Below, in pieces: positions 31,612 to 31,768 of a stretch of DNA of 64,000 bases. Location: assembly GCF_054482595.1 (NCBI RefSeq), contig NZ_CM137008.1. One strand, given 5' to 3'. Under the pieces are notes generated by a model that saw only the letters and a list, made by a program, of their open reading frames with translations, did not search any database and had not been told where the DNA came from. The translations under genes and the position numbers were made by a program. Each line of letters begins with the position of its first letter. The stretch's first letter is position 1.

Positions 31612-31715
31612 TGCGGCGCGAACGCCTTATCCAGCCTACAAAATTGTGCAAAATCAATGGATTGCACAGGTAGCGTAGGCCTGATAATCGTAGCGCATCA
31701 GGCAGATTTGCGTTT
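31612..31715. repeat. REP/BIME cluster between gcd and cueO
   Basis: gccggatgcggcgcgaacgccttatccagcctaca and gtaggcctgataa...gcgcatcaggca, typical REP palindromic units. Confidence 0.75.
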
Positions 31716-31768
31716 GTCATCAGTTTAATGCCCGGAGAGATCCGGGCATATTTCCGAATACGGTCTTT

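Follow-up and report, generated by a model that had tools for sequence, protein, structure and literature searches.

Probable two-layered organization of the convergent gcd-cueO spacer in Escherichia coli: a locus-specific hairpin and a composite BIME-1-type element

The spacer between the convergent genes gcd and cueO of Escherichia coli appears to consist of two layers, namely (i) an old hairpin specific to this locus and (ii) an inserted BIME-1 element, with functions that would be those known from its repeat family. We assign this reading a probability of roughly 0.8. It is supported by a 46-bp spacer allele of E. coli that holds the hairpin only, as well as by related Escherichia that share the BIME at the same site. 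The anatomy of the spacer, the copy-number status of its parts, their conservation, and their polymorphism in the population are matters of direct observation. The BIME-1 class, its properties, and its variability from strain to strain are already known, and the importance for annotation is small; E. coli has several hundred REP/BIME sites, and this is one of them. A first-pass annotation, made from the letters alone, had called the palindromes an ordinary feature, and this judgment is upheld by their membership in a repeat class that has already been described.

Results

The gcd-cueO spacer

The window (the whole stretch of 64,000 nucleotides that was analyzed, read on one strand) is E. coli DNA, and the 331 bases around the palindromes are 100% identical to strain XH990. 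By the open reading frame list together with RefSeq, gcd occupies 29159-31567 on the plus strand and ends in a TAA stop codon at 31565-31567, and cueO occupies 31769-33358 on the minus strand, with its stop codon (TAA on that strand) at 31769-31771. The names gcd and cueO, which the first-pass annotation had already used, are those of the RefSeq annotation under the 100%-identical E. coli match. The two genes converge on a 201-bp spacer (31568-31768), which is 3' UTR for both of them. The same gcd-cueO arrangement is found in K-12 MG1655, where the coordinate equals 170402 minus the window position; in the allele alignment, the window allele differs from that of K-12 by three SNPs.

A composite BIME-1-type element

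Two REP-type palindromes had been noticed in the spacer, and both are borne out. The Z-type REP GCCGGATGCGGCGCGAACGCCTTATCCAGCCTAC (31606-31639, plus strand; iREP sense) deviates from the Z-type consensus at one position, and the Y-type REP GTAGGCCTGATAATCGTAGCGCATCAGGC (31675-31703, plus strand), which is of the short BIME-1 form, likewise deviates at one position from the short Y-type consensus; 100 dinucleotide shuffles gave 0.00 matches expected by chance in either case. An E. coli REP is an imperfect palindrome of 20-40 nt that is extragenic and recurs many times in the genome. A conserved GTAG at the foot of the stem, or CTAC in the inverted copy, is a feature of REPs (PMC3333891), and both tetranucleotides are present here, with the Z REP ending in GCCTAC (CTAC at 31636-31639) and the Y REP starting with GTAGGCC at 31675. 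The two REPs are therefore inverse in orientation (CTAC...GTAG), and the pair is extragenic, lying wholly between the gcd and cueO stops. The start of the first palindrome had been set at 31612, which is 6 nt late, and the remaining coordinates of the first pass stand.

The two REPs had also been taken as two separate units. Their REP nature holds, but their separateness does not, as both form the core of a single complete BIME-1-type element of ~153 bp at ~31573-31725 (boundaries +/- 5 nt), in which a left outer arm, the Z REP, an L linker, the Y REP, and a right outer arm follow each other in this order. When three other genomic copies, from the yiiF-fdhE, sbp-pfkA, and mscK-rsmS spacers, are aligned with it, conservation extends from ~CAGATTGCTGACAA to ~TTGTCATCAG, and the copies diverge outside these limits. 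The left outer arm ATTGCTGACAACGTGCGCGTTGTTCAT (31577-31604) and the right outer arm AGATTTGCGTTTGTCATCAGT (31705-31725) are partners in the inverted repeat TGCTGACAA/TTGTCATCA. A check of whether these arms are unique to the locus showed that they are not, since they are multi-copy and conserved in the other copies: the left arm (37 nt left of the Z REP) has a median of 4 copies per genome, and a 331-bp query has a median of 5 matching places per genome among complete E. coli genomes. No tandem BIME copies are present in the window.

The L linker (31640-31674, 35 nt) contains a small internal palindrome, TGTGCAA/TTGCACA, and is conserved in three to four other genomic copies. At its center lies an IHF consensus match, AATCAATGGATTG (31652-31664, plus strand), which agrees perfectly with WATCAANNNNTTR. 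Because the window holds 8 IHF consensus matches, versus 2.5 expected, it is the position of this match that counts and not the match itself. The IHF ChIP supplement of PMC8407004 has no entry for the gcd-cueO locus.

A BIME-1 (in the Gilson/Bachellier nomenclature; also known as RIP or RIB) pairs a Y REP with an inversely oriented Z REP, occurs as a single copy, and has a long, conserved L linker (PMC3333891), which frequently carries an IHF site (PMC3333891, PMC2817692); its Z REP is by definition a Z1 (PMC3333891). IHF binding to BIME-1 is credited in PMC3333891 and PMC2817692 to Boccard & Prentki 1993 and Oppenheim 1993. The gcd-cueO element has, besides the inverse Y and Z REPs and the conserved linker with its IHF consensus, the single unit, the extragenic position 3' of transcription units, the several copies per genome, and the conserved outer flanks of the class. 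It is unlike BIME-1 in nothing essential, the differences being an IHF core that reads ATCAA here (the perfect form) versus TTCAA in the other aligned copies, and the three SNPs relative to K-12. Judged by sequence, then, the two REPs, the linker with its putative IHF site, and the outer arms are one composite BIME-1 (RIP/RIB), in which every defining feature that could be tested is found. The loop of the Z REP reads GCGCGAACGC here, GCGTGAACGC in K-12, and GCGTAAACGC in the naRNA4 (BIME-2) consensus, and this difference from BIME-2 is only suggestive with respect to the Z1 sub-type.

The Rfam matches of the element raise the question of whether the spacer is a small RNA gene, ES036/CssrF-like or naRNA-like, with a function of its own. 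ES036 (RF02751) matches 31640-31682 over all 43 positions of the model with 34.6 bits (E 1.4e-5), and the Z REP aligns to the first hairpin of naRNA4 (RF02564) with 32.1 bits; the gathering scores, however, are 37.6 and 59.5, respectively, and both matches fall below them. Moreover, the ES036 model amounts to the L linker and the first part of the Y REP, and the naRNA4 match is to a REP hairpin, so that any BIME would match. A scan of 31300-32000 found no promoter-like sites, the segment is missing from 44% of genomes, and the nucleoid role proposed for naRNA4/REP325 was not reproduced (preprint 10.64898/2026.03.23.713779). With matches that are sub-threshold and that represent the repeat itself, the small RNA reading was rejected as highly improbable.

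Two open reading frames that run across the repeat (31591-31728, plus strand, 45 aa, and 31505-31720, minus strand, 71 aa) were likewise rejected as coding, because the REP sequence that they traverse is absent from 44% of genomes and because equivalent frames recur with each unit of an eightfold BIME array in another Escherichia (described below). A 9-nt direct repeat, TGCCGGATG, which occurs in the last gcd codons (31548-31556) and again at the start of the Z REP (31605-31613), is probably a coincidence.

A locus-specific hairpin

Downstream of the BIME, in the gcd sense, lies a GC-rich hairpin, ATGCCCGGA-gaga-TCCGGGCAT (31728-31749), which is transcribed by both genes and has a perfect 9-bp stem (100% complementary, with 6 G-C pairs) and a 4-nt loop. 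The first-pass annotation had described it as an extra cccgga-gaga-tccggg hairpin just before the cueO stop. Its arms are indeed at 31731-31736 (cccgga) and 31741-31746 (tccggg), and 19 nt separate the end of the hairpin from the cueO stop codon; its presence and position thus hold, and the word "extra" is to be refined, for the hairpin is the older, locus-specific, single-copy part of the spacer.

The hairpin folds with -17.4 kcal/mol on the plus strand (z = -5.6; 0 of 200 shuffles as good) and with -16.0 kcal/mol on the minus strand (z = -4.8). Perfect 9-bp hairpins are expected 1.8 +/- 1.7 times per shuffled window, versus 18 hits (~12 distinct sites) observed, and because such a hairpin alone is not significant, its reality rests on conservation. 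Of 5426 complete E. coli genomes, 5420 contain it, in single copy (a median of 1 place per genome), and it is invariant in all five of the alleles aligned. It is also identical in a lineage in which the flanking coding DNA has diverged by 5-7% and the orthologous BIME by 14%. Outside Escherichia, Citrobacter amalonaticus and C. sedlakii have a homologous hairpin, which shares its outer stem (GCCCGG/CCGGGC) and its flanks (..AT..CATA..) with that of E. coli; its distance from the gcd stop, 5 nt, equals that in the short E. coli allele. The seventh and innermost pair is T-A in C. amalonaticus versus A-T in E. coli, which means that pairing is kept by a swap; in C. sedlakii, there is no matching pair at the seventh stem position.

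The hairpins expected in shuffled windows (~1.8) are all that speaks for the palindromes being chance features of a spacer of mixed AT/GC content. That origin is refuted by the REP matches, at 0.00 expected, by the multiple copies of the element, and by the conservation of the hairpin in 5420 genomes and in Citrobacter, and we give it a negligible chance.

A different reading makes the hairpin a decayed third REP or palindromic unit, so that the whole spacer would be repeat-derived. After the gcd stop, Citrobacter, Enterobacter, and Trabulsiella often have REP-like palindromes of the form GCCCGGT...ACCGGGC, followed by CTAC in several species, and these resemble the GCCCGGA...TCCGGGC of E. coli. 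Yet the E. coli hairpin is found at a median of 1 place per genome, lacks a GTAG/CTAC foot, and combines a 4-nt loop with a perfect stem, whereas functional REPs of E. coli carry a stem mismatch (PMC3333891); it is, moreover, better conserved than the adjoining BIME. We consider decay from a REP decidedly unlikely. From these comparisons of copies and genomes, the hairpin is instead, to all appearances, not repeat-derived, and it is an older, conserved, and ancestral component of the spacer.

A second, small stem-loop, TACGGT-cttttta-ACCGTA, lies at 31761-31779, and its loop includes a T5 run as well as the stop codon of cueO. Every fold predicts it, and it does not vary among the aligned E. 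coli alleles, but its conservation tells little, because it overlaps the end of cueO and is partly coding.

Folding and transcription termination

As RNA, the whole spacer is predicted to fold with -85.7 kcal/mol (z -5.55) on the plus strand and with -79.9 kcal/mol (z -4.28) on the minus strand, and in this fold, pairing of the two REPs and of the outer arms gives a single long stem. The hairpin of the Z REP by itself has -15.1 kcal/mol on the plus strand and -18.7 kcal/mol on the minus strand.

The place of the locus-specific hairpin in the middle of a convergent spacer, as well as its stable GC stem, would fit a genuine bidirectional intrinsic terminator for gcd and cueO; the BIME, situated past the terminator for cueO and before the one for gcd, would then be a passive passenger. 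Canonical bidirectional terminators with a similar stem, accompanied by A-runs and T-runs, do occupy the same position in other genera, namely in Raoultella (AAAAGGCCCGG..CCGGGCCTTTTTT) and in Enterobacter and Klebsiella (AAAACGGCAAC..GTTGCCGTTTTT). In addition, ~40% of the REPs between convergent genes lie inside the bidirectional terminators of an earlier study (preprint 10.64898/2026.03.23.713779). The E. coli hairpin shares with such terminators the single palindromic stem-loop common to two convergent transcripts, but it lacks their pair of an A-run and a U-run: no U-run adjoins it on either strand (tails AUAUUUCC on the plus strand and AUUAAACU on the minus strand), and a consensus terminator scan of 31300-32000 returned 0 sites on both strands. 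We do not class the hairpin among the canonical intrinsic terminators. The Term-seq supplement of Adams 2021 has no 3' end in the spacer (MG1655 138634-138834), which low expression of both genes could explain, and a full-text search of the literature found no experimental work on gcd/cueO termination.

Supplementary file 2 of Adams 2021 places a Rho-termination region (score 3.44, p 5e-6) at MG1655 138442 on the minus strand, which corresponds to window position 31960 on the plus strand. This region is on the gcd-sense strand, ~190 nt inside cueO and antisense to it, and its location suggests that some gcd-sense transcription crosses both the BIME and the hairpin. A full bidirectional terminator is, in view of the absent U-runs, the empty scan, the Term-seq result, and a Rho region that lies 190 nt further on, a possible but doubtful alternative to the two-layered spacer.

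Spacer alleles in E. coli and IS621

Of the 5426 complete E. coli genomes in which alleles were counted, 5399 fall into four classes. The long spacer with the BIME is found in 2739 genomes (~50%), and a 46-bp spacer with the hairpin only, 5 nt after the gcd stop, in 2369 (44%). A 77-bp spacer, which has only the left outer arm in addition to the hairpin, occurs in 95 genomes, among them CFT073, Nissle 1917, and ATCC 25922, and a BIME with IS621 inserted in the Y REP occurs in 196 (3.6%). Given that ~44% of E. coli genomes lack the element, the BIME is dispensable.

The whole element (31573-31725) is missing from the 46-bp allele. The empty site reads TAA-CCA-TAATGCCC, versus TAA-GACTT-[element]-TAATGCCC for the filled site, which is not a clean insertion. 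On either side of the part deleted in CFT073 stands a copy of the 8-nt direct repeat TT(C/A)ATGCC (31601-31608 and 31725-31732), and the CFT073 junction falls within this repeat; from its sequence, this junction would be equally compatible with replication slippage and with transposase-mediated excision.

Read on the minus strand, 31675-31685 of the Y REP is an exact copy of the 11-nt natural target ATCAGGCCTAC of IS621 (PMC11208160), including the CT core. IS621, a bridge-RNA-guided recombinase element of the IS110 family, sits exactly at this target in strain F437 (L004, 2680-3958), with an AG (= CT) core at both junctions. The count of 196 occupied genomes comes from a locus-specific junction query, and a junction query not restricted to the locus showed that IS621 is also inserted in other BIMEs. 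The Y REP is thus a natural IS621 (bridge-recombinase) target that is used recurrently. The window copy resembles the occupied sites in its exact target and is unlike them in being empty.

Other Escherichia and other genera

A BIME is present at the same gcd-cueO site in four other Escherichia lineages (L006, L008, L009, and L010), and because they share it, the insertion is old. We infer that the BIME polymorphism within E. coli is either long-standing or maintained by recombination. The layout of the short E. coli allele is common to Citrobacter.

In Escherichia sp. MOD1-EC7003 (L008, 3128-3985), a BIME-1 unit of 107 bp is repeated in tandem, in 8.0 copies with 96% identity. The unit consists of the Z REP, the L linker, and the Y REP, and the array contrasts with the single-copy BIME-1 of PMC3333891; it also creates a series of spurious 74-aa open reading frames. 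In E. whittamii and Escherichia sp. E1V33 (L009, 3098-4655, and L010, 3098-3955), the BIME is kept, but in place of the conserved hairpin there are a different hairpin and an extra 172-aa open reading frame on the cueO strand, which has a signal-peptide-like N-terminus. In E. whittamii, moreover, the gcd stop is immediately followed by a TnpB-like remnant (CPECG...HDRDINAARNI).

Among 85 loci examined, gcd and cueO are convergent neighbors in the 78 that have a CueO match (80 of 85 from the cross-genus scan). In loci L011-L085, the spacer after the gcd stop ranges from 39 bp to >2 kb. The majority of the short spacers shown contain palindromes that resemble species-specific REPs or repeats of the CCCTCTCCC/GGGAGAGGG type, as assigned by eye, and these palindromes often adjoin a canonical bidirectional terminator, again as judged by eye.

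Discussion

In the two-layered spacer that we favor, the first layer would be the hairpin at 31728-31749, whose ancestral position is 5 nt beyond the stop of gcd and 19 nt beyond that of cueO. This hairpin would most likely serve as the 3'-end stem-loop of both mRNAs, where it could form a barrier to 3'-to-5' exonucleases, and it may act as a weak, possibly pausing, bidirectional termination signal rather than as an efficient canonical terminator.

The second layer would be the BIME-1, which an ancestor within Escherichia acquired between the gcd stop and the hairpin. A REP-associated tyrosine transposase (RAYT; PMC3333891) processes REP/BIME units, and the element is presumably a non-autonomous repeat of the kind associated with this enzyme. 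As DNA, it is a candidate site for IHF binding and bending between the two REPs, and it would offer a landing site for IS621 as well. As RNA, it is predicted to be a very stable composite hairpin that lengthens the gcd 3' UTR and, by analogy with REPs that have been studied, may shield the mRNA upstream of it from degradation and attenuate read-through, in part via Rho. IHF binding, mRNA protection, attenuation, and mobilization by RAYT are ascribed to the gcd-cueO element as putative properties of its family.

The best-studied case of a REP attenuator and stabilizer is REP325/naRNA4 (10.64898/2026.03.23.713779), which attenuates in a partly Rho-dependent manner and also stabilizes mRNA (preprint 10.64898/2026.03.23.713779). 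The gcd-cueO locus resembles it in having REP hairpins in a 3' UTR, with a Z REP that aligns to the first naRNA4 hairpin. However, REP325 is a tandem BIME-2 array of 12 hairpins with short linkers, between tandem genes in the yjdM-yjdN operon, whereas the gcd-cueO spacer, which lies between convergent genes, has a single BIME-1 whose IHF linker is long, and an Rfam score far below the gathering score. According to the same preprint (10.64898/2026.03.23.713779), the presence of REPs between convergent genes is correlated with increased expression of the two, the effects of REPs are context-dependent, and terminal REPs do not lengthen half-lives genome-wide.

REPIN/RAYT (TnpA-REP) elements provide another comparison. 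Like these, the gcd-cueO element has an inverted REP pair with its linker as the unit, is present or absent depending on the strain, and is amplified in tandem in a relative. Unlike them, it has no clean target-site signature, and mobilization at gcd-cueO can only be inferred.

The spacer offers a natural allelic series within Escherichia, which comprises the hairpin only, the hairpin plus the left arm, the hairpin plus the BIME-1, the BIME-1 with IS621, and the eightfold array. This series could be used to test the effect of a BIME-1 on convergent 3' UTRs, an effect termed "context-dependent" in the 2026 study of REP325. It is conceivable, though in our estimate rather unlikely, that the presence or absence of the BIME is a common natural regulatory polymorphism that, between E. 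coli lineages, measurably alters the mRNA 3' ends of gcd (glucose dehydrogenase) and cueO (copper oxidase), their stability, or convergent interference; if so, the hairpin would be a non-canonical bidirectional stop or a site of RNAP collision. The 8-copy array of the other Escherichia lineage might, as one possibility, form a multi-IHF nucleoprotein structure.

The window contains a second, larger REP cluster in another convergent spacer (58640-58850), in which Y, Z, a linker, Y, and Z follow each other. The linker of this cluster has an IHF consensus at 58743-58755, and an exact IS621 target lies at 58649-58659; judged by position relative to MG1655, the cluster is located between yacG and mutT.
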